Assembly (NCBI RefSeq): GCF_037042905.1
Contig: NC_087250.1
Coordinates: 13,890,001 to 13,954,000, forward strand
Direction: 5' to 3'
Length of the DNA: 64,000 nt
Origin: Lytechinus pictus
Lineage: Eukaryota
Both the position numbers and the translations under genes were made by a program. Below the pieces are notes generated by a model. It worked only from the letters and a program-made list of their open reading frames with translations. It made no database searches and was not told the origin of the DNA. This document shows, piece after piece, positions 15,301 to 63,174 of this stretch (positions within the stretch are counted from its first letter, which is position 1; every line of letters begins with the position of its first letter).

Positions 15301-18300
15301 ATAGAGACGATATATATACACCATCATAATGTTATTTTTTTTTGTAGGTTTTACAAGCTATCTATTATCATCAGAATGTGATATTTTTGACAATCTTCAA
15401 CGGAGAGTTTGTCAGGACATGACCCAATCGTTATCTCACTACTTCATTGCTGCTTCTCATAATACGTGAGTATTTAAAGGGCAATCACACATGTTATGGC
15501 GGGGGGGGGGGGGAGGGTACTCGAATTATAATATGATACCTATGTGCCGCACCAAAGTCGGGGGTCGGGGGCTCTGGAACTAAATATTGGTCTCAAAACG
15601 GGGTCTCCGGAATGGCTCTGATCAACGATTGCTAAAAATGCAATGCTGTGAAAAAGGGGGTCTCCAGAACCCATAGATCGTAGGCATAATTGGTAGCGGC
15701 TGTGTAAAAAAACCTGCGTGCGTCTTGCTACATTCATTTCGGGCAAGCTAGCTGCAGGCGCAGGGGAGCTTCAGGGGCCAGTTAAAGTGGGCAATCCCTC
15801 GTATATACCTAATAGCCCTGCGGGCAGGGGAAGGGTGGTGACTTCCCCCTCTACATATACCTGTACTGCTGCAGTGTTTCGTAAGTCATTATTTTTTCAA
15901 GCCTTGCATGTAATTTTAGACTGAATTTGGGACGTCTGGAAACAGGGATAAAAAATTGATGTTACTGTCTGTGTAAGTGACACTTTTAAATTGTATTATT
16001 TATGTTTGTATGACAGTCAAATGATGAAAATGATATTAATGATGGTTATGATAATGATGACAATGACAATAACAATATATGAATGAAGATTTATATATAT
16101 GTTTTCATTTTTTAATGTTGTAGGTATCTAACTGAGGACCAATTGAAAGGACCATCAAGTGTAGCAGCGTATGTGTCAGCATTACAGAAAGGATGCAGAT
16201 GGGTGGAATGTAAGGTTTAGCCCCCGAGTCATGTCAGAATTTTTTTGTTCCAGAATTCACCGGTGTTGCGCCGGCCGGAATCTGGTGTCCCGATAAATGA
16301 ATTCGCGAACGGGGAAGCACTTAAGCACTTTCTTGGAAACAGATGCAGGGTTGACTGGCGGGATGGGAAAAAACTTTTTCCAAAGTTTGCTGAAAATTTC
16401 AAGATTTAAATTATCACATAAATATAATAATTAGAGATTAATATAGCGCACAAATCTGTCGGTAATGACAATCAAGGCGCACAATTAACATAATATGCAT
16501 GAAATGCCTATCTGTTTTGCATATTATTTTTATAAATACTACTAAATAATGACGAATACCACATTCTTTCTTCGCTCTGAATATCTGATTAAAAAAAAAA
16601 ATTCAGTTGATAGTAGGGAACGTTCAAGCACTTGATCAAGGTAGTTGTCATTGGTAGTAGTGTGGGGCACTCAGAGACATTGTATTAAGCGCTTTACAAA
16701 TGTTGCAAATTAAAATTCATTGAATGCCGAAGCACTAGATGAAGGTCGTCATGCCAAATTCAGGGTACTTGTAGCACTTTCAAGCATAATGCAAAATGGT
16801 GCATATTGTTATTGTTAAATATTGTTTTGTGTGTTTTATTTCAGTGGATGTATGGGATGGAGGCAATGATGAACCTATAATCTATCACGGCCATACACTC
16901 ACATCTAAAATACTCTTCAAATCAGCTATAGAAGCGATTAATCAACATGCGTTCGAAACATCAGAGTGAGTATTCTGTCTAGTTTGGTCTACTTCCGAGA
17001 CATTGATGAAATCCATTTGGTATCATGTTCGCCACCTAATCGTGAGCTTCAAGATCAACACCAAGACCGAAATTAAAATCACAATTTTCCCCAACCCTGG
17101 GGGTTGGCGTTAGTGAATGGGCAAATTACATGTAGATCGTCAACACCAGCTGTAATGCTTGCTTGTATGTTTGCGACAATCAACAGACCTCGGCTGAGGG
17201 AACATGGTCTGTTGATTGTTGCAAACATACATGTGACAGTAATGCACGCTGCAAACTTGGTTACGCATAGTGCTGGTGTTATCGGTGAACATGCGATGGA
17301 CAAAATCATATGGATCCAGAATTGCATGATGAATGGATCAAAAATTGCACGGATGATGATGTCATTGTAAAATGGGCTGAATGATCGATATCAAACAACC
17401 AATCGAATGACAATGACCATTCTAGACGTCATGTAACATAGAACAATGGTCTATCATATCAATTACCTGTCAAGCTGCATTGTCAGCACGTACATGTAGC
17501 TGGTTTCATCTTCAAACCATCTCTTGTGGGGACATCATGGTCAAGTGGTTATGACTCTTGTCTTCCAATCTGAGGGACGTGGGTTCGAATCCCAGCCATG
17601 GCATGTTTTCCTTCAGCAAGAAAGTTACCCAAATTGCGCTGCACTCAACCCAGGTGTGGTGAATGAATACCCATTAGAAGGGCCTAAATGAGAACAGATT
17701 TCAGAACTGAACGGGGTACCCCGTGTAAATATACCGTTATTATTATTATTGATATGATCTCTTTAGGTATTCAGTGATTGTATCGATTGAGAACCACTGC
17801 AGCATTGATCAACAGAGAGTAATGGCCCACTATATCAAGTCTGTGTTTGGTAACAAGCTTCATAGTGAGACGATAGATGATTTGATCTCTTTTACTACAT
17901 TCTTTTGATCTCTTACTAGGTATCCAGTGATTGTATCGATTGAGAACCATTGCAGCGTTGATCAACAGAGAGTAATGGCCCATTATATCAAGTCTGTGTT
18001 TGGTGACAAGCTTCACAATGAGCGTATCAAGGTGATTTCATCTCTGTACTACATTCATTCGATCTCTTACTAGGTTTCCAGTGATTGTATCGATTGAGAA
18101 CCATTGCAGCGTTGATCAACAGAGAGTAATGGCCCATTATATCAAGTCTGTGTTTGGTGACAAGCTTCACAATGAGCGTATCAAGGTGATTTCATCTCCT
18201 TCTACATTTATTCGATCTCTTACTAGGTTTCCAGTGATTGTATCGATTGAGAACCATTGCAGCGTTGATCAACAGAGAGTAATGGCCCATTATATCAAGT

Positions 18301-21300
18301 CTGTGTTTGGTGACAAGCTTCACAATGAGCGTATCAAGGTGATTTCATCTCCTTCTACATTTATTCAATCTCTTTAGGTTTCCAGTGATTGTATCGATTG
18401 AGAACCATTGCAGCGTTGATCAACAGAGAGTAATGTCCCATTATATCAGGTCTGTGTTTGGTGATAAGCTTCACAATGAGCGTATCAAGATGATTTCATC
18501 TCTTTCCTACATTTATTCGATCTCTTTAGGTTTCTGATGATTGTATCGATTGAGAACCATTGCAGCGTTGATCAACAGAGAGTAATGGCCCATTATATCA
18601 AGTCTGTGTTTGGTGACAAGCTTCACAATGAGCGTATCAAGATGATTTCATCTCTTTCCTACATTTATTCGATCTCTTTAGGTTTTCAGTGATTGTATCG
18701 ATTGAGAACCACTGCAGCGTTGATCAACGGAGAGTAATGGCCCATTATATCAGGTCTGTGTTTGGTGACAAGCTTCACAATGAGCGTATCAAGATGATTT
18801 CATCTCTTTCCTACATTTATTCGATCTCTTTAGGTTTCCGATGATTGTATCGATTGAGAACCATTGCAGCGTTGATCAACAGAGAGTAATGGCCCATTAT
18901 ATCAAGTCTGTGTTTGGTGATAAGCTTCACAATGAGCGTATATAGATGATTTCATCTCTTTACTACATTCATTCGATCTCTTTAGGTTTCCAGTGATTGT
19001 ATCGATTGAGAACCATTGCAGCATTGATCAACAGAGAGTAATGGCCCATTATATCAAGTCTGTGTTTGGTGACAAGCTTCATAGTGAGACGATAGATGAT
19101 TTCATCTCTTTACTACATTTATTCGATCTCTTACTAGGTTTCCAGTGATAGTATCGATTGAGAACCACTGCAGCGTTGATCAACAGAGAGTAATGGCCCA
19201 TTATATCAAGTCTGTGTTTGGTGACAAGCTTCACAATGAGCGTAGCAAGATGATTTCATCTCTGTACTACATTCATTCGATCTCTTTAGGTTTCCAGTGA
19301 TAGTATCGATTGAGAATCATTGCAGTGTTGATCAACAGAGAGTAATGGCCCATTATATCAAGTCTGTGTTTGGTGACAAGCTTCACAATGAGCGTAGCAA
19401 GATGATTTCATCTCTGTACTACATTCATTCGATCTCTTTAGGTTTCCAGTGATAGTATCGATTGAGAACCATTGCAGTGTTGATCAACAGAGAGTAATGG
19501 CCCATTATATCAAGTCTGTGTTTGGTGACAAGCTTCACAATGAGCGTAGTAAGATGATTTCATCTCTGTACTACATTAATTCGATCTCTTTAGGTTTCCA
19601 GTGATAGTATCAATTGAGAACCATTGCAGTGTTGATCAACAGAGAGTAATGGCCCATTATATCAAGTCGGTGTTTGGTGACAAGCTTCACAATGAGCGTA
19701 GCAAGATGATTTCATCTCTGTACTACATTCATTCGATCTCTTCAGGTTTCCAGTGATAGTATCGATTGAGAACCATTGCAGTGTTGATCAACAGAGAGTA
19801 ATGGCCCATTATATCAAGTCTGTGTTTGGTGACAAGCTTCACAATGAGCATAGCAAGATGATTTCATCTCTGTACTACATTTATTCGATCTCTTACTAGG
19901 TATCCAGTGATTGTATCGATTGAGAACCACTGCAGCGTTGATCAACAGAGAGTAATGGCCCACTATATCAAGTCTGTGTTTGGTAACAAGCTTCATAGTA
20001 GGACGATAGATGATTTCATCTCTTTTACTACATTCTTTTGATCTCTTACTAGGTATCCAGTGATTGTATCGATTGAGAACCATTGCAGCGTTGATCAACA
20101 GAGAGTAATGGCCCATTATATCAGGTCTGTGTTTGGTGACAAGCTTCACAATAAGCGTATCTAGATGATTTCATCTCGTTCCTACACTTATTTGATCTCT
20201 TACTAGGTTTCCAGTGATTGTATCGATTGAGAACCATTGCAGCGTTGATCAACAGAGAGTAATGGCCCATTATATCAAGTCGCTGTTTGGTGACAAGCTT
20301 CACAATGAGCGTATCAAGATGATTTCATCTCTTTACTACATTTATTCGATCTCTTAATAGGTATCCAGTGATTGTATCGATTGAGAACCATTGCAGCGTT
20401 GATCAACAGAGAGTAATGGCCCATTATATCAAGTCGGTGTTAGGTGACAAGCTTCATAGTGAGATGATAGATGATTTCATCTCTTTACTACATTTATTTG
20501 ATCTCTTACTAGGTATCCAGTGATTGTATCGATTGAGAACCATTGCAGCGTTGATCAACAGAGAGTAATGGCCCATTATATCAAGTCGGTGTTAGGTGAC
20601 AAGCTTCATAGTGAGATGATAGATGATTTCATCTCTTTACTACATTTATTTGATCTCTTACTAGGTATCCAGTGATTGTATCGATTGAGAACCATTGCAG
20701 CATTGATCAACAGAGAGTAATGGCCCATTATATCAAGTCTGTGTTTGGTGACAAGCTTCATAGTGAGACGATAGATGAGGATCTTTCATACCTTCCTTCA
20801 CCTCATCAACTGAGAGGCAAGATTCTTATCAAGGTTAGTATAATAATGATAAAGCAATATTGACTGGCCTCGGGGCGATACAACATATATCGCCCAAACT
20901 AGATTCGTCTACGACTCGGGCGATATCAATTTAGTGAGGGCGATATATGTCCTTTCGCCCCGAGGCCAGTCAATATTGCTTTTATTAACCAAAGCAGACA
21001 TCTAGAGCAAAAATCGCTAATATTTAGATATTTTAGAGTTTAAGAATGAGAATCTAGTTTACCATGTTGAGCAGACTGGGCCTCTGAATATTACCATTGT
21101 GACGTAAATGAAATGACGCGTCCCTGGCCTAGGGACACGGTATCCAGCGTCTCAACTTGATTTACATTGTGACGTATAGCACTGCGCGGTTCAATGACGC
21201 GTACAAAATTGTGTAGAATACCCGGATGTTAGCTCTGCCTTATTGCCCGCTACATTTCCACGCATTTTCTCATTAACTCTCCTGAGCGGGCAATAAATTG

Positions 21301-24300
21301 GGCCCGTGGATAAACAATTGGAAATTTATTGACCGGCCATTTGATCCCAGTCTTAAGCAGGCAACAATGTATTAAAGTTGACCTGCTCAGATGTCTGATA
21401 TGGTTAATAATAAGTAATAATAGTAATAGTAATATCAGTAATAATGATGATGATGATGATAGTAATTAGGCCTTGGAGTGAACATCGATTGATAAATTGT
21501 TTGAATGGCTTGCCGCCGACTGCTATTCGATTAGCAAAATTTTTACTGTTCGAATGTTTGGCAGATCCCAATTAGACACTTGGGATAACTCGAATACTAC
21601 AGTAACAGTAACAAAAGGCCAAGATAACAATGATAACAATTGTTTTTACATACTTTTACATACAGGTTTAAAACAATGTTACCGAGGTAATTTGTCAAAA
21701 ATGAACAATGATTTATCACATTCCCAGGTAAACACCAATCTGAAAGAGCTCCGAAAATATTAATCCCACCTGTACCGTCCTTTTCCTCGATACACAATGC
21801 ATGTTGTCTGCATACTTAACAGTTAAAACAGAAAGTACACACACAAAAAGCTCACTTGAGCTGATACGTGATTGGATCCTTCCGACGGCCAACAAAACTT
21901 TATGGGAGACAAAGCTGGAGGAGAAGCCACGTGGATCCACTGATCTGTACAATTCAATTCAACCCACGTGCTTCCCATTATCAGGAAAAGTCATGACTTC
22001 AGAAACAAATTGACCCCCCCATCTCTCTGTGTGTGGATCTGTGTGCGAGAGAGAGAAAGAAATATAGGGGCTGGGAGCAAGAATTCCTTTCATGTTTCAA
22101 AGCAAAGCAGTTAGCCCCCCCCCACACACCAACTTTCCCATAACTTTCCAACACACACAGTCACTAACATACCAGGGGCCCGTTTCATAAAGAGTTACAA
22201 CTGTTGTAACTTTGCCATTATGGCAACTTCCATGGCAACCTTGATTATGATTGGCTGCTGAGCCCTGTTACCATGGTAGTTGCCATAATGGAAAAGTTAC
22301 AACAGTTGCAAGTCCTTTATGAAACGGGGCCCCTGATGTTTTTGACTAGTCTCCCAAAATAGACCCAGTTGTAGGTTCAAATGATAAAAGTTTTGTAATT
22401 TTGAAAGGTATTCTAAATGAAATATATTTTGCAAAATACAGTGTGTAGCATCATGTGCAGTGCCACAGGTGGGGGGGGGGGCATGGTGTGGGTAAGGAAT
22501 GAATTTTACTATCAGCCAATCAGATTGAAGGATTTCAGTAACTTTTAAATTTATTTGTAAATTTTTTGCAGGGTAAGAAGCTAGCTGATGATGTAGAAGG
22601 AGATGAAGGGGAAGTCACTGATGAAGATGAAGGATCGGATACAGATAGAGGAAAGAAGATAAAGAAGGTAATTATCAATCATCATATTGCAGGGCTGCCG
22701 AGCCTCTCAGAAAATTGATTTTTGAGTGAAAATCTGCAGATTTTCAACATCTCCCTGATTCATACGTTGGATGATTTCAAGTTCAGTGTTGACCTTTTGG
22801 TGTTGGTGTAAGGTCAATTTTTACATGATTATAGCACCAAACGTAAAATGAACACGGTCCTGAAAAGTCGCTCACTAGTAGAGATGTCAATAATGTGATC
22901 TAGATCAGTTTTACACTCTAAAAAATAGGTTTTGGAGCTAGAGGAAGCAATCCAAATTGTGCTTCCAACCCCAACTCCGGATTTGAAAGCACCCATTGAT
23001 TTCTTTCAATAGATTGTGTGTAATTGAGAAAGATATCTCTCCTTCCTCTGTAAGGGGTAAGGGTTCAAATCCCACCACAGCACAGAGAAAAGTAGATTAA
23101 ACGCTAAGGTAATTATCAATTATCATTCTTGGACTGCCAGGTCTCATAATCAAGCATTCTATTTATTAATGATAATAATAATAATACTAACATTTGTAAG
23201 GTTCTTAATGTAGATGTTTCAAAGCACTCAATTTTCTGGCTTATTATTGATTACTGGGGATGAAAGAACAAAAGTGTAATTAATAAATGAATAAATCACC
23301 AAGTCTCAGATTATAAAGATTAAAATTGACGATAAAAAATTGCTTTTTGCGTATGCAAAATATCAAGAATTCATATTCTTTATATGAGGAATCATTTGTG
23401 TTGTTAACAAAAGGCGATTCTTGACATCAACGAATGGGATCAAGAAAACTGCATGCCATGGTCTACCTTTGTCGGCATATTTAAGGCCAAACGTTCTGAT
23501 GCGACAGTTTCTTTACACATAAAATTATGATTCCGTAGAATGCAAGACTTACCTCTTTTTATCACTCTGGTTAATTTATACATTCCTCTTTGTTTTCTTA
23601 TCTTTCTCATTTAAGTTTATTTTATTTGGTGTAAATGTGTGTATTCCTCTTCATTTTGTCATCTTTCTCTTGTAAAGTTGTTTCATTTTGTGTTTATAGG
23701 CTCGATTTTTCTCATTCCGGAGGGATGACGACCCTGATCTCAAGGTCAAAAGGTTAAGGGATAAATTGACCTTGAAAGAAATAATGGCTTCTATAGCCAA
23801 GGTATAACGGTTTGATGTTTTTTTTTAGCGCATCCTCTTTCTGCCATTTTGCCTTCATAAATTGACCTTGGAAAAATAATGGCTTCTGTAAAGCCATTCA
23901 GTTTGTCTCTTTCTACCATTTTTTGCATTCATTTTGCTAACGTTTTGAACTAACACTTGTATTTTTCATACATTTATTAGATGTTTCAACTTCATTTAGA
24001 GCTGACAGACTGGGGCATAAAATCATTGGTTTTGGGAACATTTTTCTATTAATTAAATCTTTCTGCTGGGTAAAAAAAATGCATTTGAAAATGTAGCGAG
24101 TGCAATTGCTCCATTAGAACATTTATTATTCAAGGTAAATGATGTTGTGTTATGAAATTTTGATTTAAGTTCATCTAAATATGTTAAATAAATGGTGTTA
24201 GACTGAGTGAAAATAAGACAAAATGTCCCTTATTGTGAATAGAGGTTTATTTCTAACTCTGGGGTACATTTCATAAAGGACTTCCAACTGTTGTTGTGGC

Positions 24301-27300
24301 AACAGGGCTCAGCAGCCAATCAAAATCAAGGTCACCATGGTAGTTGCCATAATGACAAAGTTACAACAGTTGCAAGTCCTTTATGAAATGGGGGCCCTGG
24401 TCTGCGCATGACCATTACATTAGAAATTTCAAACAGTAAAGATTAAAATTGACAGCACATCAGGGCCCCGTCTTACAAACAGTTGCGATTGATCCGATCA
24501 ACCACAACTATGGACGGCCAGCAACGTCAACATCTAAAATGCAAATTTGTTCAAAATATTTTCTAGATATGATGTATATTTATGTGTTTCATTCTTTTGA
24601 AGATTCAGAGTGTTTCTCATTGTTTACCAAAGATAATTTCCTGTAGAAAAAAATTATGGTGTGGGTGGATTTCCATACATTTGAGATTGATTGGATCAAT
24701 CGTAACTCTTTGTAAGACAGGGCCCTGGTGCTCGATTCATCCATAACTGTTTGGGAATGACAATAAAGCTTGGGAAAGGGACCACAGTGAATATTAGAAG
24801 CATACAGTTTTACTTCATTCTGTCATTCTTCATTCTTGGTCTAGTGGTTCTGACTCTCGCCTTTCAAACAGAGAGTCGTGGGTTCGAATCCTAGCTATGG
24901 CGTGTTTTCCTTCAGCAAGAAATTTATCCACACTTGGCTCCACTCGACCCAGGTGAGGTAAATGGGTACCGGCAGGAAGTAATTCCTCAAAAAGCTGTGA
25001 GCACCAGAATCGGTAGACTAGCTTAGGCGGGGTAATATAGGAGTGCCTTGAGCACCTAGCAAGGTGGATACGTGCGCTCTACAAATTCTATATTTTATTT
25101 CTTTTTTTTTTTACATTTCTGGTTTACTTTAATTTAGCTCAGAGTTAGACCAAAGTCTAAGTTAAACCAGGCTTCGGAATATGGGCCAATGAGTATAGCC
25201 TGAGTGGAAGTTAGACAAAATGATAAATGAGCTAAATGGCAATTAGACAATATTAATAATCATTAACATTATTTGTATAGTGCTTATCACAAAACATTAA
25301 AGCGCTTAGGAAAAAATAGAAAGAGAGTTGGAATTTCAGCAAAAAATTTAAGTAATTGAATAGTTCACAGCGGACTATAGACAATTGAGGGGCTGCATAA
25401 GCAAAGGGAAAGGCTATTTAATAAAAAAGTAGGTTTTTAGCGTGGATTTGAATTTCTCTATTGAATCTGTTTCATACTTTGTAGTAGATTGTTCCAGAGT
25501 TGAGGGGATGCGGAATAAGAAGATGATTTAGTAAACAATTTGGTTGTAGATGAACTGGACCTAGGGGGTGTTGCAAGAAAATATTTGCAATCAATTGCAA
25601 ATTACAGTTGTAAAGTTATGAGTGATCAATCAATTTTAACGAAGCAAATTGATGGATGTTGATACAAGAAGCACACTGATGATCAATGGCAAATTTTCCA
25701 TTAATGGCAAGAACTATGATTGATTTGGGGATCTAAAATTGACTTGCGATCGATTGCAAGTTTCCTGCAATGCCCCATTAGACCATGTGACACATGTGCT
25801 GGTGATTATAGTCCTGTTAGACATAAGAGAATTAGCTTTATAGCTAGGCATTATACACCATCAAATACATGATCAGAAAATGATCTAATGGATCACATGG
25901 TCTAGTGGGGGTATTGCAAGTTTCTTGCAATACCGATTAGACCATGGCCCCGTCTTACAAAGAGTTACGATTGATCCAATCAATCATAACTCTATGGAAA
26001 TCCATCACGGTCATAATTTTTTCTACAGGAAATTTGCACAATGTCTTTTGTAAACAAAGAGAAGCACAGTGAATTTTCAAGACAACGATGAATGCATGAA
26101 TATACATCATGCTAGAAAATATTTTGAACAAACATGAATAATACATGTAGATGTTGACTTTGCTGGCCGTCCATAGTTGCGATCGATCGGATCAATCGCA
26201 ACACTCTGTAAGATGGGGCCCATGTGACACGTGTGCTGGTGATATATAGTCTTGTTTAGACATTAGAGAACTAGCCAAGCCAGGCATTGTACATCATCAA
26301 CACTTATATGATCAGAAAACGTGATACCAATCCACAGATCTTGTTGAGTCATTCTCTCTTAAAACTTAAAAGGGAGGCGCGATAGCTTAGTCGGTAGAGC
26401 GGGGGTTTCGGATTCGGTGACCCGGGTTCGATTCCAACTTGGTGCGCTAGTGTCCTTTGGTATTAAAGGTATTAATCCTCATTACCAGGTCCCTCAGAGA
26501 AGACCTTAAGCCGTTGGTCCTCTGGTTGCCTGCTTACAAGCATTCATGCTTTCGTAGTAATCAGGTAAAAAATTACTACCATCATAACCACCATCATTGC
26601 CATCCCAAATAGGACTTGATTCTTAGCAATATTTGTGTCCTTTCCTGTAGTAGCTGCTTTGCCGTGTGAATCATTTTTTTTTCATCCTAACCTAGAAGGG
26701 ACGCTTGCCAAAAACGCCCTTTTTCACGATAGGGCAATCACTGAATTTTTTGGGGGCTATTTTTTTTCATTTCAAGGGCTGCTTTTTTAAAAAGCTCCAA
26801 GCAAGTATGGGGTAAAAACAAATAATGCTATTCTGCCGTAAAATATTGATTTGCTGAATATTCTTGACTATTTGTGGTAGAATTGGGGGAGACTGTCTCT
26901 TGAAAAGAAGGTCATTTGAAAGCACTCTATCTGGGTGATTTTAGGGGCGATTTGGGCTATGATGTAGGCAAGATCACCTGCTATGGCCACTCTCAGCTGT
27001 TTCCTTATAAAGTGTGCCAAAACAACAGGGCGCCGTCTTACAATGAGCTATGATTGATCCAATCAACCAAAACTATGGAAAGCCAGCAATGTCAACATCT
27101 CAAATACATATTTGTTAAGAATATTTTCTATATGTGATGTATATTCATATATTCATATTTTTCTTGACAATTCAATGCGCTGCTCTTTGTTTACACAGGA
27201 CATTGTTCAAATTTCCTGTAAAAATTGTTATGACAGTGATGGATTTCCATAGAATTGAGGTTGATTGGATCGTTCGTAACTCTTTGAAAGATGGGACCAA

Positions 27301-30300
27301 GGCCTTGTTAATAATTGGTTGATTTTATCTAGTAACTATGCACGCTCTAAAAGGGATCAAATAGTAGTAGTCAACCGGTCATAGAAAATACATCCTGGCG
27401 AAAGTAGTGTATTCTGCATGGATAAAAAGATATGTAGAGCGGTGCTCAAAAGTTAGTGAACCCCACCAGAAAATGAATATTTGAAGTGTTCAAATTCTGC
27501 CATATTTTAGATATTTTATTGTAAACTCAGATGATAAAATATTTCACTCAATAAAGTTTGTTTACTCAGATGATGAAATATTACACTTTTTAATAATAAA
27601 GTTTGTTTCTCTGGGCTCGCCAAACCTTGTATTATTGTTGTCTACATTCAATACTCTGCATGAAGGAGTGCATTTTGTGGTGGGGATCACTGACTTTTGA
27701 GCACAACTGTATGTGTTTAATTATGTGACATTTCTTTGACTTCTGGCATATCAAGTGTTTTGGTACGAGGTATGTAATGTAACAGTCAACCTATGCAATA
27801 TGATCAGATACCTCTACACTTCTGGTATATACGTGGGCAAATGGAATTCCTTTTGTATTGACATATGTGCTGGTACATACACATATACTTAGACTCAAAT
27901 GGAAGAAGTCAAGAGAGAGACCTTTTATATATATATATTTTAGCAATTTCTGGATCAAATTCGCATAAATGTATTGTAATTCTGCAATATGAACTCGATT
28001 CATTTCAGCTGCACCTATAGTTATTAAAATAACTGAAGCCCCATTCCTTTCATTTTACTATCCTTTCTGTTAAATACAGGACGTTCCTTTTCTATTTAAT
28101 CTACATGTAAGCCTAACCTCTCTTATCAAATCAGTAATATTTGGCAATGCATGATAATGCAGGAAATCTAAAGGTATCACAGGTCATAAATGTTTATTAA
28201 AAATATTTTTCTGCTGGTATTTATGATGTTGTTTTTGTCGCAGCCAGAAGGTTTACAAACGTAGGATAATTGGATCAGTGATCATAATAATAATAATAAT
28301 AATGTAACTTATGAAGTGCCAAAATTCACTCAGTAGAGAGCCCAAGGATATAAGGATTTAAAGGAAAAGTTCACGCTGATAAATTGGTCTTGATAGAAGC
28401 AGAAAAATGGAAGAAATATTTGGTGGGGGTTTGATGAATGTTTGTCTAAAGAATGATAATTTATGTCTTTAAAAGTTTGATTATGTGACGTCACAGATGA
28501 GCAGCTCCTCCTTATATTGTATGATATTGATTTTTTTAAAAGGCAGTTTTCCAAAAGAATTTAAAATTGTTTTATTTGTGGGTTAACCCTAAAAGGCCCG
28601 GGGGGGGGGGGGGGGGGCGGAATCCGCCTCCCTCAACATATTTCGCGATTAATCCGTCGCGCGAAATTTTTTCAACGCGCCGCTCGCTGACTTTTTACTT
28701 TCAAGTCTCACGCAACTTTTGAGACCAAATTTGCGATGCCCGGGTACCGGTTAGGAATTTATGCAACATTATGTAAGTGCATGTCAGACCCAAAATTTCT
28801 CAAAAACGTGAATTCATGTACAAATCCAATGCAAATTGTGTATTTAGCCAAAATTTATTAATGTATCATTATTTCTACTTTTATTGATAAAAAATAATTA
28901 ATTTTGTCTTGTTTATGATCAGAATTAAGTCTGCAACAATTTCCATAAAAAACAAAAACAAAGAAATACATAAGAAATTAAAAAAACAATAAAATACATA
29001 AGAAAAAAATTGCGATACCAATTTTTTTTATGTACGTTTGATCAGAATCCTACAAAGAGTCTGTGAATAAAAAATTTGCAATTTTGGGGCCATAGTAAGT
29101 TAATTAGAGCAAATGTTTTATTTCATGCATAAATTAGCATAATTAATTCATTAAAAAAAAATCTTATTTTTTCAGAAAAATTAATCATACAGCCTTGTAG
29201 ATTTTATTGCACACTACCACTGTGCAAATTTTCGCGGCGCCCTTGCGATCGACGGCCGAGATCTCAGGGGGGGGGGGGGCGGAATCCCCCACCCTCCTCG
29301 GCTGTGAGATGGGTACAAATAATCCGGCTCTTTTAGGTTTAATATATCATCAGACACATCATTCCAGTTACCCTTCTTGTATAAAAGAATTGTCTTAAGT
29401 TTGTTCTGATCCCATTCCGCATAAGGGAGACCTTTGAAGGACCATTGAAAGACCAAACATTGGCGAGGTCTTAAAGCAGTCTCCAAGATCACTGAAATTT
29501 GTCATCTCTGGAATGGTTCTGAAAGACCCCTCAAAGAACTCTGAAAGACTGATTGATAATTCTTGTCTTACTGGGCTTAGACTAGTCCTATAGAGATCTT
29601 TCAATGGTCTTTCAGAGATCTTTTATGCAACAAGTGATCTTTCAGTATTTTTTCCATGGACTTTCCTGGTCTTTAAAGATCTTTCAATGAATCCTTTAAT
29701 GATCTCTCAGTGATCTCCACAAAAATCTTTAGAGACTGTTTAAACAGGGAAGTGTTATAGACTTCCCTGGTTTAAAGATCATGGAAAGACTAATAAGAAC
29801 TTTGAAAGATCATCAAGAGACTGCTGAAAGACCATCAAAAGACCAGTTTCCTGAAAGGCCGCTGATAGACTGTTTTGAACTGTTTCAAAAAGTTTTGGAA
29901 ATCATGAAGGCCACGAAGAACACTGACAGATCAATCAGGAATTATGAAAGACCTCAGATACTTTTGAAAGTTCATTGAAAGACCTTTGAAAGATCAAGCA
30001 AGTTTCATGGTCTTACAGACAGTGGTCTTTCAGATGTCTTGTCTTCTGTGGAATGGGGGTTTTCATCATGGTCCATTGAAAAGATGGAATGTATGGGATT
30101 GTTATTATATGATATGTGAGGAGCAGCTCGCATATGACATCAAAATTAAAAACTTTATTCAACCTCTCTTAGTGGGGAATTTTCATAAAACCTTCACCAA
30201 TATTTTTCTCCAATATTTCTGCTACCACCAACTAAAAAGAAAAAACAATTTCTATTTTTCCTCCTTCTCTCCTACAGTTAACATGACCAATTTATTTGAC

Positions 30301-33300
30301 GTAAAAAAAATATTTTTCCTAATCTAAATTTTGATTTTTTTTTTTCAAGTTTGAGTTCAGTTTTTGATTGCATGTGAATGAATTCAAGCATGTAGACCAG
30401 TGTGGGTTTTAAATCATTGAAAAATCAAACAAGCATGACTTTGAATAATTATTTTCAAATGATGTTACTCTTAAATGGGAATACAGTATTATGAGGTTGG
30501 TACATACATTATATATGTCATGAATATTGAAGAAAAAAGCTGAAAGCTAGCATTCCGTAGACGACCAAACTTCAGGTTTAATCTTTAGTTAAACTTTGGT
30601 TAAATTATCAAAATATTCTTCTATAACTGGAGATAAAGTTTTATCATGCTTCTTTCTTTTTGGAGAATTAAAGTAGAAAACTGGCTTTCTACCATTTACA
30701 TGTTTTTTTTAATTTGTGTTATTAATATTATTATCATTATATTCACATCATTGATGAAAAGGAGAGAAGAATTTCATCAGATACGTCAATATGGAATACA
30801 TAGTAGGAACAAAGCATAAACAATTAAAAAAATGTTTGAGGTACAATCTCTCTCGACGGATTTTTTTTTGCCACAAATTTCCAGTTGCTTGTATCTTAAG
30901 ATTATTTTTTATCCAACCATTCATTTGTAAATTGATTAGATTATAATATATTCATTCATAAGGAAAACAATATCTGTGTATTGTTTAGGTGTTGTATGAA
31001 GGGTTTAGTTTGATGTGATGTAGGAGGAAAAAATCTTTTATACCTGTAATCATTGGGTCTGAAAAGTTACTCAATATTTGGAAACTCTAGTTTAAATGCT
31101 CCCCAGGGAGTGGAGAAAGTGAATACGTTGTGTTCAGACCATATGCCATACAAAAACTTCATCAAGATAATTGTACAGTGTTACAAGAAAGTTATGATAT
31201 TTTGAAATGTCACTTATTTTTCACAAAATATGCACAATTCAGTGAGAGGGCCGATGATGTCCCTTACTATATTTGTTTTTTATTGTTTAAATTATACAAC
31301 TTTTCAAATTTTACAGGTCTATTTGACAATAAGGACCAACTTGACTGAAGCATGAAATGTTAAAATAGTGGTAATTTCACTTGGTCATTGAGAAATGAAA
31401 CCTTCGTTTCACAGGGCAATGAGGAGAAAATTAGAATGTTTGATTTGATACACTACAACAGAAATAGTGAGTGGGTGACATCATCAGTCCTCAGTTTTGT
31501 AAAACTAAGGAAAATTTGAAATATGATAACTTCCTTCTTTTTCATTTGATGTTGATGAAATTGTCAATTTGCTTGTTGGATTTTTCTCTTTTTTATTCAA
31601 ATCAACTTTTTGTTGGGGTGGACTTGTCCTTTAATAAGTGTAACTCATTGTGGTAAAGGGCCACGGTCACACTATAGAATTAATTGTTTATATTATCGAA
31701 CCTTTGCCCTGTAAATTTTCTGTGTATCCAGGGCCCGGTCTCACGCTACAAGTAATAATGATTATATTTTCAGATGATGGAGGGAAAAAGAGGCCATTAA
31801 TAAGGGAGTTATAGGACCTGGTTTGACAAATCATATTCTTTGTATTACAGGATGGATTGAAGAAGAGGCCATTAATAAGAGAGTTATCAGACCTGGTTAC
31901 ACTATGCAAATCAATTCGCTTTCCAGGGTTCAACGAAGCAAGACAGAATCGTAAGTAGTTCTCTTTTTTTCACTTTGCATTTTAGGATGACATGTAATTT
32001 TAAAGATAAATACCAGTTGTGGTAACGATTCATAATGAGTTCGAACAGAATCCAATAAAATTTCCACCCAAGTATTTGTTTGTATAAATAAAAAATTGTG
32101 TGCCAATTGACTCTGGAAAACAATGTGTATTTGCTGAGAAATTAGCAAAATAAGCACAGAATTCCTTAAAATGTCAGGTATTTTTCCAAGCAATATTAAT
32201 ACACTGTCCCACATATGCCTTTTTGTGTTAGTTATCATTGGAATTATCGGTTTTCAGCTAATATTTCAAGATTTCACAAAGTATTTCTGAAGGGGTCTTA
32301 GTTTTTAACGTGCTTTGGGTGAAATGATGCATCCAAAATGCACGGCTGGAAAATTGTGTGTTCAAAGTAAAAAAAATAGCATGTGACTTGCGTAAGCACT
32401 GCCTATTGGCTTCATCATTGGACCCATTTTATATTAGTGTTACATAATCTACATGCACATGTTCTTTGGTATATTGGTAGGTATAACTGAAATGGTAAAT
32501 TAATTTTGTTGTATTTGTTTTGTCTTAGAGAGATCCTAGGAGTTATGTTTGTTCTTGGAGAATACAACACGATCATACGAGTGCATATTGTAGATGTAAA
32601 CCTCGATAGATAATTAATTTTGTTGTGTGTGTTTTTGAAAGTGGTACGAGAAGATATTTTGCATGGATTTAAATGTAAATTGATTGTAGATTATGTTGTG
32701 TTTGTTTCTTGTTTCAGAGAGGTACTGGGAGTTATGTTCATTCGTGGAGAACACAGCAGAGAAGTTTGCCAACATGTGTCCTGAGGACTTTGTGAGTCAC
32801 AACAAGAGTTTCCTATCCAGGGTGTATCCTAACGCAAACAGGGTAGATTCAACCAACCTCAACCCGCAGGATATGTGGAATGTTGGATGTCAAATAGGTG
32901 AGTAGGAACAATATTGTAATACTAAACATAATTTCACTCGAAAGGTTCATCTGATTGGTGTGTAGACATGAGAAAACATTCTTTATTCCTTAATCACAAA
33001 AACTTACCTGTTTTTCGGTAAGATTCTTCATGCTGCATCAGCAATAGCGCCAGCTATGAGGGTCTGACGAAGCTTGCTGCCTAGCTAGCGAACGCTTACC
33101 AAAAAACAGGCATATTTTTGCGATTGTGGAATAAAGTACTTTTTCTCATGTTGCCGTGGTTATCCATTGTTTTAAATTAATGAGTCCACTCTTCAAACAG
33201 TTGACTCACGAATAAAATAGCATATCTAACCATGGTAACAGGCGTCAATTTGGCGCACTGTGAAAAAAGCGCGCATCAGCATCAGCATTGGACATTTTTT

Positions 33301-36300
33301 ATACACGCGTCTGATACACGGTAAATTAAGCGTAATTTATACAGGAAATCTGCATAAACCATGGATTCAACCGTGGGTTTTCAAAACCACCTTTGTGAAT
33401 TCGGGCCATTTTGTTTAAATCTTTTAATCAACCCCTTCATGACCATGAAGTTGTCAGCATAATCAGCTGGCGAGAAGAGAATTGAGATGATTTTTTAGAC
33501 ACAGATATTTTGAAAGTGTCTTCACAATTCATTTTCCTTCCTTGGTGTTTATGTTTTAGTCCAAATGAACATTAAAATACAACCCACATTAAAGTTCTTT
33601 TTTTTTTATAAGCCAGACCTCTGAAATTTAACCAATGTCTATAATACTGCTCTTCTTACATTGGTTTTATTAGGTGTCTTTATATTTGGTAAACTGCTGA
33701 TTTGTCTATTGCCAACTTGTTCACTCATCACATGGTATACCTTCATTTAGTCTAATGCCATTCCGTCCATCAACATTTCATCTAACAACCGTTTGGTCCA
33801 ATAACAATTTGGTCCAATAATCACTTCGTCTAATCCCCAGTTCGTCTATGACCATTTTGCCTAATTTTCTTTTCATTCATTTCGCCCAATCAACTTTTTT
33901 CCAATTAGACCAAATGGTTTATGGACTACATGGCTATTGGACCAACTGGTTATTAGACGAAATGGCAATAAGAACGTGTGGATAGTAGACGAATTAATGA
34001 TAGACCAAATGATAGTAGACAAGTTGGTAATGAGATGAATTAGCATTAGACCACTTGGAAATAAACCTTTATATTTCACTTCATGAAAAAGAAATTTGGG
34101 CGTTGCCTTTGAATGTGAAAGTGTGCATATAATTAGATGTTCATATATTTTGTTGTTTTCAGTGGCTCTAAATTACCAGACGCCAGGATTAATGATTGAT
34201 CTCTACGATGGAAAGTTTCAGATGAACGGCAGCTGTGGATATGTATTGAAACCAGCTATCATGAGAGAAGGTGAGCAGAATTCGGTGGATTCACAATACA
34301 GTACGTGATCTATCGGTCGCAGTGGACAGGCCGAAATTCGCAATGCCTTGTGGGAAAAAGTCGACATTTGTTGCACACCCCAGTACTAAAGTGCATGTAC
34401 ATGTATGCGATTATTCAGCATTGGCCGATGGGCTTGAGTGGATATACATGTATGCTGTATACCAGGGTCCATCATTATGTTAGTATAAGAAAAAAGATAT
34501 TTTTTTTCAGATTGAAAAAATGGAGTTACTTTTGAATAAACAATAATCGTTTTATAAATTTACAGCCAAAAAGCCTTAGTTTTTAACTCAAACCTTTCAT
34601 GTTAAGTTTTCAAAGCCTCCATATATCTTACCGTAGCATATCGCCTCAAATTTTGATTGGTATTTTCAGGGATAGCTTATTTTTGACAAAACTCATTTGA
34701 TGTGATCCTTGGAGTAATATCTTTAATCTCTAATGTTGTTAAAATTCAGAGATTATTTTTGAACAAACCAATTTATAAGAGTCTCACTCCAAATCTTGAA
34801 TCTTATTTTTCAGAGATTGCTTATTTCCGACCGAACTCATTTGACTTGATTCCGGGAGTATCGCCTCAGATTCTTCACATCAAGATCATCAGTGGCCAAC
34901 AGTTCCCTAAACCAAGAGGATCAGGATCTAAAGGAGATGTGAGTCTTTCTTCTTATCATTCTTGAACAGCGTAGGAATTACATGAGGGCGACGCTCGATT
35001 TCGCCCCCAAGACAGCCCAAATCACCCCTAAAATTCCCCTGAAATGCATGCTTTGGGGCGACCATTCTTTCTAGAGTCTCTCCAAGATCTGTCGTATCCC
35101 TAAAAAGGACCATGAAAGGATTTCATGACATAACATAAATATTCCACACATATGCGATTTGTGGAATATTTTCCCAAACTCTTGGAATATTTCTGGTATT
35201 CCATTCTGAGCCATCCAATATAATTTAATTATTTGTTTTATTTTTTAGGTGATAGATCCATACATCTCTTCAGAAATCTTTAGCATACCAGCTTTCTGTA
35301 GAGAGGAATAGATGATAATAAACATTATTTGTTTTATTTTGTTTAGGTGATAGATCCATACATCTCCGTAGAGATCTTTGGCATACCAGCTGACTATAGA
35401 GAGGAATAGATGATAATAAACATTATTTGTTTTATTTTGTTTAGGTGATAGATCCATACATCTCCGTAGAGATCTTTGGCATACCAGCCGACTGTAGAGA
35501 GGAATAGATGATAATAAACATTATTTGTTTTATTTTGTTTAGGTGATAGATCCATACATCTCCGTAGAGATCTTTGGCATACCAGCCGACTGCAGAGAGG
35601 AACGCACCAAGACAGTACCTCATAATGGTAAAGTAGTGCTCATAATTCGGATGACCAACTATATAAAAAAAGTATGCATCAAATGATAAATTCCAGACTG
35701 TATCATTTCATGTGCGCAGGCTATATACATCAGGGTTCCGTCTTACAAAGAGTTGCAATTGATCCAATCAAGCGTAACTCTATGGAAATCCATCGGTGTC
35801 ATAATTTTTTCTACAGGAAATTTGCACAATGTCCTTTGTAAACAAAGAGAAGCACAGTGAATTTTCAAGAAAACAATGAATGCATGAAAATACATCATAG
35901 AAAATATTTTGATCAAACATGTATTTTAGATGTTGTCATTGCTGGCATTCCATAGTTGTGATTGATTGGATCAATCACAACTCTTTGTAATACGGGGCCT
36001 TGGGTCCCGTCTTACAAAGATTTGCGATTGATCTGATGAACATCAACCCTATGGAATTCCATCAACAAAAAATTTACACAATGTTCTATGTAAATAAAGA
36101 GGAGCATACAATGTAGAAGATTATTTAAAAAAAAGATGAATGTATGAATATGCATCATTTTGAACAAACCTGCATTTTAGTGCTGGCTATGCTGGCTTTA
36201 CTGGCATTTCATGTTTGTGGTTTATCAGATCAGTTGCAACTGGGCAATTCCATAGAATATGTACGTCCGACCCCCTATATGTGGGACCTTCATAAATGTT

Positions 36301-39300
36301 CTGTCTCTGATTTCTTGTTCTTTTGCCAGTCTGTAATGCTCTCAAATGACCATGACTTGGTCAGTTTATGAAGTGAAGTAAAACTTGAGAAAATTGGGGG
36401 TCGGATGTACAAAAAGGTCGATTATTTTATGGAATTGCCCAACTCTTTGTAAGACAGGGCCCTGGTGCCCATGTAGCCATATTTAACTGCAATTACATTG
36501 GCCATATTGATCCATGGATTCATATTTGTTCGTCTAGCGGGTTCTCCTCTCTCCTGCATTCAATTCTTGCAATTTAATCATTGTTTCTGCTCATTTTAGC
36601 ACGTCCTTAAACTATTATTTATGGGGGCGTTGTGGTCTAGTGGTTAAGACTCTTGTCTTTCAATCTGAAGGACGTGGGTTCGATTCCAAGCCATGGCGTG
36701 TTTTCCTTCAGCGAGTAATTTACCAACATTGTGCTGCACTCGACCCAGGTGAGGTGAATGGGTACCAGCAGGAAGTAATTCCTCAAGAAGCTGTGTGCAC
36801 CGGAGTAATATAGGAGCGCCTTGAGCACCTAGCAAGGTGGATATGTGCGCTATACAAATCTTATATTATTATTTTATTTATAATTGACCAATAGTAGGGA
36901 GATACTGGTTGACAGTGTAGTTACAGAATTAAGATATGTATAATCGATTTCATTGCAACCACTTAATCAGATTCAAATTAATGATACTCTTATGTTACTT
37001 TTATTCTACTATTAGGTAACTCTTATTTCTCTCTTTTACGTTACTTTTATTTCACTCTTACAATGTATGTTATTACTCTTATTTTATTCTGAAGTACTTA
37101 ACTTTTTTTTTCTCTTAGGTTACAACCCAATCTTTGACGAGAGCTTTGAGTTTTCTGTCAATCTTCCAGAGTTAGCCTTGGTGCGCTTCGTGGTCCTGGA
37201 TGATGACTTCATCGGTGACGAGTTCATTGGTCAATATACCATACCATTTGAATGCTTACAACCAGGTATGTTTATTGGTCAATATACCATACCATCTGAA
37301 TGATCCTATATTAATAAACCTCAATCAACCAAGTAGAGATTAGAAAATAATAGTACCGAGCAGGATTCTCCAGTTTTCTTGCTTGAATTTATTGACTCGA
37401 CACCTTATAATTCAGATTCAGATTCATTTATTTCACACCTAAAATACAAAAATACATAAATACAAATAAAAATCTTATACGACAGAACAGATATTGACAA
37501 GTATTTGCATAGTCCCATTTGCACATCCATTTCGTTTTGTTTGCAATTTTAATTACTCCACTGAATAAATTCCTGCCAGGTACAATTTACCTCACCTGCA
37601 TTGAGTGCAGCACAATGTTGATCCATTTTTTTTCCACACTTTGCTCCCTGTAAAGATTTAGTGTACTTGTGAATAGGGTACCAGCTGATCTTATTTCCTG
37701 TATGATTTTGGCAGAAAGGGTTCTCACATAATAATGATAATTATAATAATAATGATAATAATAGTAATTATTGGATTTATATAGCGCTTTTTCCAGAGGA
37801 CACAAAGTGGTGTTGATGGCATAAAAAAGTTCAGGTTTAAGGTTGTGTAAGTGTACTTTGAGATGTTTTTTGAAGAGATCAAGAGAAGAGAGGTTTCGAA
37901 GAGATGGAGGGAGTTTGTTCCAAAGACAGGGGGCAAGAGATTGAAAGGAGTTGAAACCGGCCTGTTTTCTGGATTTTGGAATGACACAGGAAGGAGCAGC
38001 TGCAGAACAAAGAAAGTATGTAGATCTTTGTTGCTGAAATAATGAAGAAATGTTAGAAGGAAGTGTGGTTGACAGAGATTTAAAGGTTTGAACAAGTATT
38101 TGACATGTATATCAAGGCCTCTGTATGGATGTTTTTACTCACTTTATAATGCAGGATATCGTCATATAACCCTACTATCAAACACCGGAGAACCATTGAA
38201 ACCTGCATCTCTCTTTGTTCATGTAGCAGTAACAAACAAGAGAGGAGGAGGGGTAAGTCTTTATAATCATTCATTTATTGTAGATATTGCTTTGATTTTA
38301 TGATCCTTCATACATCCTTTGACCTCATGGATTCACTCATGAACTCAGTTCAGTGCATTATTTGTATTATAAAACTCCTAAGAATGTTCTGTAATCTGAT
38401 TGGTCCAAATCGGATCACATGATATTCAGCGAATTGCACTATTGCATCCAAAATGCACTATCCTGCACTCTGACGTCAAAGTGCAGGATAGTGCGAGGTC
38501 TGGAATTATCTAGAAATATCTAGAATTTAGATCAAATATAGCATTCGGGGCAACTCAGTAACATTGGGGAGGAGGGGGTTGTATAAAACAAACAATGCAC
38601 TCATTCTTGTGCATAGAGGACCTAAATAATGAACTCAGTGCTCGACTCGCCAAATGGATATACCGCACTCGGTCCTGCGGGCCTCGGTGCGGTATATCCA
38701 TTTGGCGAGTCGAGCACAGAGTTCATTATTTGGCCCTGCATGCACACGCTTACGTGCATTATTCGTAAATTATATCTCTATTCAAGAAGTTTAATTTGAT
38801 AAATTACTATTTAGAGTTTTAATACAATGTATCCCTGTTGTTACTGTTTCTTTTAATAGTGGCTTTCCCCTTGGGACTGGCAGGTGAGATCAGGGGCAGG
38901 TTGCACAAAAACATATCAAACCTAATTCTCAAATGCATGCTACTGATTGGTTAAAAATCAAGTTCTGTTTGATTTTTCTTGAGTTGTGTTCAGTTGGAAC
39001 TGGTACTACATGAGGGGGGTGGGGGTGTTTCACAAAGATTTAAGTATAGCTTAAAATCATGCCTATTGCTGACGCGCACATGATTGTGTAACGCACAATT
39101 TTATTGATAAAGACGCGCATCCTCTTGGCATAAATTGACCAATGCGGTGATACCGTTTTTTCGTCACACGACTGAACATTTAAGTGCGACTCTAGGTCAT
39201 ACTTAACTCTTTGTGGAACACCCCCAGGATCCTTGTATGATAAATATTTTTTTTTATTTATCAGCACTAGTCTCAAGGTAATCTTGTAAGCTATTTGATT

Positions 39301-52225: not shown

Positions 52226-52682
52226 AGTCATCTCCATATTGGAATTAATAACAATGTATAATTTCCACCTGCATTGTCGCAATGCATGAAATGATGCTTT
52301 CATGGTCCTCACTTTGTAATAAGGGGAATAATGTCCTCACTTTGGAATGAAATCGATGAGTTATTGGAGAGCAAAGATTTGTAGGGTCCTCAGTTTGTAA
52401 CAGTTCATTAGTAATGATGTTAAAGGCAAAACAAAAAATAAGGGGCTCGCTTTGTAACAAAGTTGACAAGTTATGATGGCGAGAGCAAAGCTTTCAAGGT
52501 CCTCACTTTGGTATGAAGTTGCTGTAACAGGGAAATCAAAGCTTATTAGGTCCTCACTTTAGTTGGGAAGTTATAATGGGGAGTCAAAGCTTAGGGCCTC
52601 AGTTTGTAACAAAGGTGATAGGTAATAATGGGGAAAGCAAAGATTTTTAGGTCCTGACTTTTTGTAACCATTGATAAGTTAA

Positions 52683-62255: not shown

Positions 62256-63174
62256 AAAAGTGCATTCAAGGAACCAATCCTCCCAGGTACCCGAACCTGT
62301 CAACCTTCTACAACCCCAAAAAGGTATTCTTATAAGGAAAAAAAGTATTTTTTGACAAAAAAGAGTATATTTAAAAACTTGTCTCAACATAACAATCGCC
62401 AGCCTGTTGTAATGAGATCGGCGAAAGAACATGTGAAATGAATCAACTTGAAAACTTGATAATTCACCCTGTTAAACATGTGCTCGTAGGCAAGAATTTA
62501 CTTGTTCTTTTCATGCAACAAATTACTGGCCCGACAGTGATTTTTACCGGTCTGGGACTGTCGGACTGGCGCTAGTGTGGCGCGCTATGTATAATACATA
62601 CTCCATGATCAGAAATTATTTTATAAAGTAACAAGTCATACAAAAAAGTATTGGTGTATTTATAGCAAAAAAGAGGAACAAATACTCTAAAAAGGGAACA
62701 GTTGGCATGTCTGGGTACCCATTTACTTCCTCTAGGAAGTAAATTAATTAATTTATGTTTTATGAGACAATATTAATAATAGCTGGATCTTATGCAGCAC
62801 TTTTCCCATAACAGCTCAAACTGCTTTATTGCATATCATTACCCCGGTCATTGGATTAATTTCAATCCCACGTGAAAAGTGCACGATTTCCTTTCACTGG
62901 AGGGCATTCCTTGCATTCATCGCAGCCTCATAATGGCGCTGTCAAATTCAAACATACAATAATTTCCTTCAGCGAGATATTTATCCTCATTGTGCTGCAC
63001 TCAACCCAAGTGAGGTGAATGGGTACCCGGTAGGAAGAAATTCCTTGAATGCCTGAGCGCCTAAGCAGCCCGGGTAAAGCTGGGGTAATAATAATAGCAG
63101 GGCCCGCTGTTAAAACAGTTTTCAGAACTGAAGTGGCTTCCCTGGGTAAATATACCTATATTATAGGTTTTCCA

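Follow-up and report, generated by a model that had tools for sequence, protein, structure and literature searches.

A mirage minisatellite is a tandem repeat with a unit that straddles an intron-exon boundary and an end copy that forms the authentic boundary, joined to the rest of its exon; the founding description is reportedly that of Canestro et al. in 2002. Here we describe a 20-unit array of this kind in a phospholipase C (PLC) gene of the sea urchin Lytechinus pictus. It lies in a stretch of 64,000 nucleotides (assembly GCF_037042905.1, contig NC_087250.1, positions 13,890,001 to 13,954,000 of the forward strand), which is called the window below and is numbered from its first letter. 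Two reports place mirages in the amphioxus genes for Adh3, the globins BflGb6 and BflGb9, troponin C and PGBD5 (PMC3087553, PMC3902484). In BflGb6, the 3′ end of an intron, together with the 5′ portion of exon 2, is repeated in units of 150-160 bp with 81-100% identity; 3 and 6 units occur in two haplotypes, many units keep AG/GT, and the authentic copy stands at the array end. Splicing of BflGb6 is regular by reverse transcription PCR, its units undergo concerted evolution with turnover ascribed to unequal crossing-over, and mirages are tied to intron gain by AGGT duplication (PMC3087553). PGBD5 has 60- and 108-bp repeats over its splice sites, and its report says of the mirages in Adh and troponin C that they "do not generate aberrant mRNAs" (PMC3902484).

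The PLC array resembles the amphioxus mirages in that its unit runs across an intron-exon boundary, its real copy stands last, and splicing is regular. It differs from them in its echinoderm host and in having 20 units rather than the 3 and 6 of BflGb6, and the PLC gene is further set apart by two mirages in one gene, three decoys with a good donor, and signs of exchange. The kind of element is already in print as mirage minisatellites; what is new is the echinoderm phylum, the unusually large size, and the doubling within one gene. No echinoderm mirage was found in the literature on mirage minisatellites or sea urchin intron repeats, with most subscription journals outside the coverage of that search. 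The locus extends mirages from lancelets to echinoderms and suggests that they are a general mutational class in the high-heterozygosity genomes of marine invertebrates. We read the PLC array as a mirage minisatellite that is tolerated rather than functional, with a probability of about 0.7; to the cell it would be intron sequence, and exchange between its copies and the exon would be a by-product.

A second relative is the 37-bp variable number tandem repeat in intron 7 of human F7. Its first element lies across the exon-intron boundary, and its report describes identical pseudo splice sites in a row that remain silent (PMC1557585). Like that repeat, the PLC array is a row of silent, near-identical splice sites derived from a boundary-spanning minisatellite. 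The human array is nevertheless its mirror image: the F7 repeats carry 5′ sites downstream of the real one, and the most upstream site wins by 5′-to-3′ scanning. In the PLC array the most downstream of 20 acceptors wins, so scanning from the donor cannot explain the choice. With 20 acceptors that share their branch region, their pyrimidine tract and the opening 112 bases of the exon, the array is a natural experiment on 3′ splice-site choice and the counterpart of the F7 array used to study 5′ site choice. There is also a likeness to the gain of introns through tandem duplication of a segment that contains AGGT, known as the Rogers model and reportedly treated by Hellsten et al. in 2011. In both cases the duplication carries AG/GT, the extra copy is spliced out, and the mRNA is unchanged; in the PLC gene, unlike in that model, no new intron arises and the duplicated sequence sits within an intron that was already there.

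The array and the exons around it comprise the following features (a slash marks a splice junction).

16845-16965, + strand: upstream coding exon (X domain, IIYHGH...AFETSE), with donor GA/gtgagt after 16965, phase 2.
16966-20664, + strand: intron holding the array, 3699 nt, defined by the exon chain.
17756-20664, + strand: 19 decoy units, each a 112-nt exon head, then an intron tail of about 40 nt and AG, defined by repeat finding, anchor motif and alignment.
17767, 17920, 18074, 18227, 18378, 18530, 18682, 18834, 18986, 19138: acceptor-first bases of decoy units 1-10.
19290, 19442, 19594, 19746, 19900, 20053, 20207, 20361, 20513: acceptor-first bases of decoy units 11-19.
20665-20833, + strand: real exon, which is unit 20, with repeated head 20665-20778, unique part 20779-20833 and donor AAG/gttagt.
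22572-22667, + strand: next coding exon, defined by the exon chain and RNA.

The original prediction, made from the letters of the sequence, had placed 20 units of 151-154 bp here, and repeat finding bears this out. The units lie head to tail at 17756-20778. Tandem Repeats Finder reports a period of 152, 19.8 copies and 94% matches at 17756-20767, and an anchor motif is matched 20 times on the + strand at a spacing of 151-154 nt and not once on the − strand. Chance is no issue for a 3-kb array. Each unit is built from a pyrimidine-rich intron tail of about 40 nt that ends in AG, plus the opening 112 nt of an exon encoding part of the X domain of phosphoinositide-specific phospholipase C (PI-PLC). 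The head comprises a G and 37 codons, with residues varying as Y/F, V/I and K/R, the last of these followed by SVFGDKLH..., and corresponds to about the first two thirds of the catalytic exon. As predicted, the 45 nt preceding the acceptors are identical between the penultimate unit and the real one (units 19 and 20), and most unit lengths are not multiples of 3, only 3 of the 19 decoys (units 1, 3 and 15) being so. Unit 20 alone is contiguous with the unique 55 nt and the donor AAG/gttagt at 20833. The repeated unit thus spans the intron-exon boundary, with the authentic boundary in the end copy that joins the rest of the exon. An AG is kept in 20/20 units, again as predicted (TAG in 19, CAG in 1). 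We considered this retention as a sign of selection and rejected it: 109/155 alignment columns are invariant anyway, so an AG in every unit is not evidence of selection.

Searched against the 812-Mb assembly (368 contigs), the unit has 20/20 of its matches at this one array, where repeat counts are lower bounds. The array is unique to one locus and is therefore a minisatellite. The term satellite, used in the original prediction, implies many loci or very long arrays genome-wide and does not suit this 3-kb array. The units are 82-100% alike (mean 90.7%) and form a mosaic of common variants in which units 2-4, 5-8 and 10-14 make blocks, unit 18 equals unit 19, and unit 1 goes with unit 15. The last 16 nt of the head occur in two forms: type A in units 1, 9, 15, 18, 19 and 20, including the real exon, and type B, which is 2 nt longer. 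Type-B units encode HNERIK, and the corresponding residues are HTERID in S. purpuratus and HSETID in L. variegatus. This hints that type B may be the ancestral state, shared with S. purpuratus and older than the split from L. variegatus; it is only a hint, because one residue (R versus T) carries the argument.

The host gene occupies window positions 9268-48698 on the + strand, where 21 GT-AG exons, joined, give an exact match to the annotated 794-residue protein. The translation is 100% identical to NCBI "inactive phospholipase C-like protein 2 [Lytechinus pictus]" (794 amino acids, P0001), and the exon chain uses the junctions 16965 to 20665 and 34938 to 35543. Pfam domains are EF-hand-like (PF09279), PI-PLC-X (PF00388), PI-PLC-Y (PF00387) and C2 (PF00168). 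The protein aligns with rat PLC-delta1 at E 3e-150, and the active-site motifs SHNTYL, ELD.WDG, IYHG and ENHCS are all kept in that alignment. Residues of these motifs have assigned catalytic roles in PI-PLC. With its X, Y, C2 and EF-hand-like domains and its active-site residues, the host gene belongs to the PI-PLC family. The NCBI name "inactive" stands against this conservation, and the label looks transferred by similarity. The array-linked exon encodes PF00388 positions 86-141, of which the repeated head accounts for 86-120. The glutamate of its SIENHC motif aligns with that of SLENHC in rat PLC-delta1, residue 390 by chain offset. We take Glu390 of the rat enzyme to be a ligand of the catalytic calcium, for which Essen et al. 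1996 is reportedly the source.

RNA and DNA data were mapped to window positions 16600-36500. They comprised raw reads of two stranded, ribosomal-RNA-depleted RNA runs (X21 and X22), RNA contigs (X1) with the same organism label (A) as the raw runs, and DNA contigs from organism B (X9). The mRNA bypasses the 19 decoys, as had been proposed: the exon chain with the 16965 to 20665 junction yields the annotated protein, and an X1 contig of 2218 nt (depth 19.7) runs through the real exon with no decoy. Contig positions 354-520 match 20665-20831 with 0 differences, positions 719-896 match 32718-32895, and the 198-nt gap between them equals 2 + 96 + 100 nt of annotated exons. The X1 depth at 16885-16954 and at 22589-22604 is the same as the contig depth (19.7), and over four array bins it is 0, 0.9, 0 and 0. 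No decoy-containing contig was found among the X1 RNA contigs.

The raw reads give the same picture. Exon sense depth is 8-15 in X21 and 16-30 in X22, with antisense depth 0. Over the array bins, sense depth is 0.39, 0.16, 0.58 and 0.15 in X21 and 0.13, 0.75, 1.02 and 0.19 in X22, again with antisense depth 0, corresponding in total to about 6 and about 9 reads. Two repeat-free intron bins have sense depths of 0.12-0.44. The last array bin, covering units 16-19, is the informative one, because any decoy-entering transcript that ran on to the real donor would cover these units; its depths of 0.15 and 0.19 are among the lowest, about 1-2% of exon depth. Some of the reads over the array may stem from the exon of other alleles, and the exon does carry non-reference letters in the RNA animals, with G to A at 20779 in 8/8 and 25/25 reads. 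Splicing is thus undisturbed in the manner of a mirage: the authentic copy is present in the protein chain and the X1 contig, and the array lies at about intron background, silent apart from possible rare decoy use.

Three of the decoys are more than truncated exon heads. The original prediction held that only unit 20 continues to a donor; it alone does reach the unique part and the gttagt donor, but units 2-4 have a donor-like site of their own 112 nt past the acceptor and so form complete pseudo-exons.

17920-18031, + strand: unit 2, 112-nt pseudo-exon ending AAG/GTGATT.
18074-18185, + strand: unit 3, 112-nt pseudo-exon ending AAG/GTGATT.
18227-18338, + strand: unit 4, 112-nt pseudo-exon ending AAG/GTGATT.

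At 112 nt, inclusion of any of these pseudo-exons shifts the frame. Entry into a decoy in the phase of donor 16965 leads in silico to a stop 109-301 nt past the acceptor in 19/19 decoys, in agreement with the expectation of frameshifts or stops. Any use of a decoy would therefore give a premature stop, and such transcripts would probably be lost to nonsense-mediated decay (NMD). We scored splice sites with a rough matrix made from the host gene's own 20 donors and 20 acceptors. The donors of units 2-4 score 9.2 bits, compared with a median of 7.2 (range 2.9-11.0) for the real donors. The real acceptor at 20665 scores 2.1 bits, against a median of 10.1 (range 1.3-17.0) for real acceptors, and the decoy acceptors span -1.4 to 5.4 bits, with 10 of 19 above the real acceptor and 1 equal to it. 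The real acceptor has no intrinsic advantage over the decoys. It alone is followed by the unique 55 nt, in which a purine-rich run precedes the donor, and by that donor 169 nt away. Selection of the last acceptor by exon definition is a reasonable inference, although it cannot account for everything, since a good donor is also present in three decoys. That splicing passes over three full pseudo-exons and ten stronger acceptors is, together with the possible trade of sequence between decoys and exon described below, what makes the locus most interesting.

The original prediction had also suggested that the array could work as a copy-number-variable splicing rheostat or that the decoys act as poison acceptors. 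In such a device, decoy acceptors and the three pseudo-exons would divert transcripts to NMD and make PLC output depend on copy number. We consider this role unlikely. The premature stops from all 19 decoys, a weak real acceptor outscored by over half of them, the strong donors of units 2-4, and decoy heads more conserved than their tails (4.6% versus 14.7% diversity) would fit such a device. Its use, on the other hand, should be visible in RNA, and at the low depth of these data the array shows 0.13-1.02 against 8-30 for the exons and 0.12-0.44 for the intron, with values among the lowest over the last four units, where read-through should pile up, and with no decoy contig in X1. Published mirages leave splicing undisturbed (PMC3087553, PMC3902484). 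Organism B also has no comparable depth over the large array (summed contig depths of 14.6, 0, 6.3 and 0.23 in its four bins, versus about 38-40 at single-copy exons), less than a like array of 20 units would be expected to give; the depth is nevertheless above zero, and gaps between contigs prove nothing.

Several observations point to exchange between the decoys and the real exon. The exon head in the window reads Y..I..K, two models of an earlier L. pictus annotation read F..V..R, and L. variegatus reads Y..V..K. Two 794-residue L. pictus proteins differ at 6/794 residues, of which 3 fall within the 37 repeat-encoded residues and 3 within the other 757 (Fisher p 0.0017, odds ratio 22), and the alternative residues F, V and R are all present in decoys of the window. 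Unit 9, at a distance of 11 units, shares 99% identity with the real head. Across the first 96 columns of the head, the 19 decoys show no indel, and diversity there is 4.6%, compared with 14.7% in the tail and 21% in the A/B stretch; variable columns number 20/96 in the head versus 26/59 elsewhere (p 0.0035). The variants in the head comprise 10 synonymous and 11 nonsynonymous changes, against an expected nonsynonymous share of 74-80% (p 0.004-0.027), and these variants are few and not independent. Between species, the head differs at 1/37 residues, against 14/757 elsewhere. This pattern fits copying from, or passage through, a selected exon, and a function of the decoys would produce it equally well; of the two, passive exchange appears likelier. 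If exchange occurs, intronic repeats can write coding variation into an active-site exon.

A stronger version of this idea treats array and exon as one recombining system in which unequal crossing-over or gene conversion makes decoy heads rotate into the terminal, translated position and back. We offer it tentatively, as a possibility with the odds somewhat against it. The same holds for its two consequences taken jointly, that exon polymorphism would come in part from the exon's own decoys and that decoys would be kept open-reading by selection during their time as exon; we would put this, too, below even odds. If true, a mirage would be a built-in allele shuffler and would also serve as an internal assay in which 20 copies compete as 3′ splice sites, with a sea urchin host that can be bred and edited.

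The exchange data might instead reflect a selected reservoir, in which decoy heads are an adaptive store of tested exon-head variants moved by gene conversion or unequal crossing-over. The concentration of 3/6 allelic differences in the repeat-encoded residues, with all three variants found in decoys, is what a reservoir would produce, as are the nonsynonymous deficit and the absence of indels in decoy heads. Yet the variants are conservative (Y/F, I/V, K/R) and sit in a catalytic core, where nothing obvious would favour diversity, between species the head varies no more than the rest of the protein, and passive exchange explains the same data. A reservoir is therefore improbable, slightly more so than a rheostat.

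An assembly artefact, in which one or a few true units were inflated by the assembler, would account for the identity of units 18 and 19, and one amphioxus mirage was mis-assembled in a genome draft according to its report (PMC3087553). We regard it as very unlikely here. Divergence among the units reaches 18% and is structured into subfamilies, unlike an inflation artefact, and the model from a second assembly has a different exon head that matches decoy variants. Recursive splicing, with AG/GT unit boundaries as ratchet points for stepwise removal of the intron, was rejected as having next to no likelihood: GT does directly follow AG in every unit, but the regenerated 5′ sites score -4.6 to 1.4 bits, short of a strong AG/GTRAGT site and of every real donor (2.9-11.0 bits), and the real exon starts with the same letters and is kept.

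For the tolerated mirage, we propose the following course of events. A founding tandem duplication, with one break some 40 nt into the intron and the other 112 nt into the exon, would have left a truncated exon head upstream of the intact exon, and unequal crossing-over or replication slippage would have expanded the array to 19 decoys. The spliceosome would join donor 16965 to the last acceptor, chosen by exon definition. Decoys and the real head would swap sequence by unequal crossing-over or gene conversion, and this exchange would feed conservative coding polymorphism into the exon while keeping decoy heads exon-like. Several points weigh against this reading. With about 6 and about 9 array reads, a low rate of decoy use cleared by NMD would escape notice, and the 16965 to 20665 junction rests on contig arithmetic and a protein model. 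The donors of units 2-4 are skipped despite scoring above the gene median (9.2 versus 7.2 bits), and the real acceptor is weak (2.1 bits) with 10/19 decoys stronger, on a rough matrix of 20 sites. Conserved, open-reading decoy heads could equally mean decoy function, the allele comparison is one of two gene models from different assemblies, and the copy number of 20 units is that of the assembly.

A second, smaller mirage lies further downstream in the same gene, at an exon encoding part of the C2 domain.

35228-35542, + strand: second array, 3 decoys of 98 bp, each with intron tail, AG and the first 60 nt of the C2-domain exon.
35249, 35347, 35445: acceptor-first bases of the second array.
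35543-35627, + strand: real exon behind the second array, defined by the exon chain and last of 4 units.

Its 98-bp unit occurs in 3.8 copies at 35228-35602 and is single-locus, with 4/4 assembly matches here. At the junction every decoy head meets an in-frame TAG, and the exons behind both arrays begin with GT after the AG. In the organism B DNA, a 128-nt contig on 35327-35453 spans a unit junction with 11 differences, and depth at 35367 is 172, compared with about 40 at single-copy exons (about 4x). The junction-spanning contig and the raised depth suggest that the second array is shared with organism B. For the large array, a 113-residue open reading frame across two units was compared with other assemblies: among 600 candidates it gave 25 matches, none crossing a unit junction, and these were distant PLC X-domain fragments, none exceeding 71% identity or covering more than 62% of the query, a result that points in neither direction. 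Arrays of this kind also set an annotation trap, since programs that find genes or map reads can assign exon reads to decoys.

Sequence around the large array preserves possible traces of its origin, and mobile or mobile-like elements lie near both of its ends.

About 17524-17755, + strand: tRNA-derived short interspersed element (SINE) in the intron tail of unit 1, defined by alignment of both flanks with the unit tail.
20851-20982, no strand assigned: inverted repeat resembling a miniature inverted-repeat transposable element (MITE), with 55-nt arms that are 89% complementary, starting 18 nt past the real donor.

The 31 nt 5′ of the SINE (17497-17527) and the 15 nt 3′ of it align collinearly with the unit tail and junction. 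This two-flank score was reached by 16/1000 shuffles and by 3/494 other intron windows; an initial local alignment of the pre-SINE intron to the unit tail was not significant (89/500 shuffles reached its score). The SINE sits inside the tail of unit 1 and was therefore probably inserted after the founding duplication. In the flank alignment, TAGCTGG of the old intron stands against TAGATGA of the exon, an imperfect 7-nt similarity that may represent microhomology for that duplication. Within the 64-kb window, the 9-mer ATAGATGAT is confined to the head-to-tail junctions of both arrays, with 9 matches versus 1.46 expected window-wide, 6 of them within 17873-20627 and 3 within 35308-35512. Its presence at both sets of junctions could be a break or template-switch signature, filler copied between junctions, or chance. 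The SINE family is abundant, with other copies in the window at about 24834-24970, 36619-36766, 41071-41164 and 62963-63028. Both strands of the MITE-like element lie under many RNA reads, presumably from other copies.

Some further observations concern the gene model. The L. variegatus orthologue has 1067 amino acids and includes an N-terminal part that in L. pictus is a separate 287-residue protein (P0030) on the same contig. That part has no tblastn match in the window, and its gene lies upstream of the window's first position; it seems that one L. pictus gene has been annotated as two models. An extra exon-encoded stretch, present in S. purpuratus and in one older L. pictus model but absent from P0001, is probably an alternative cassette exon, which would lie in the 9-kb intron between 22667 and 31851. 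Just beyond the last exon lie two arrays of a 53-bp unit, at 49831-50823 (19 copies) and 51629-52229 (11.5 copies), with a higher-order period of 104-156; the long open reading frames on their − strand are repeat read-through only.

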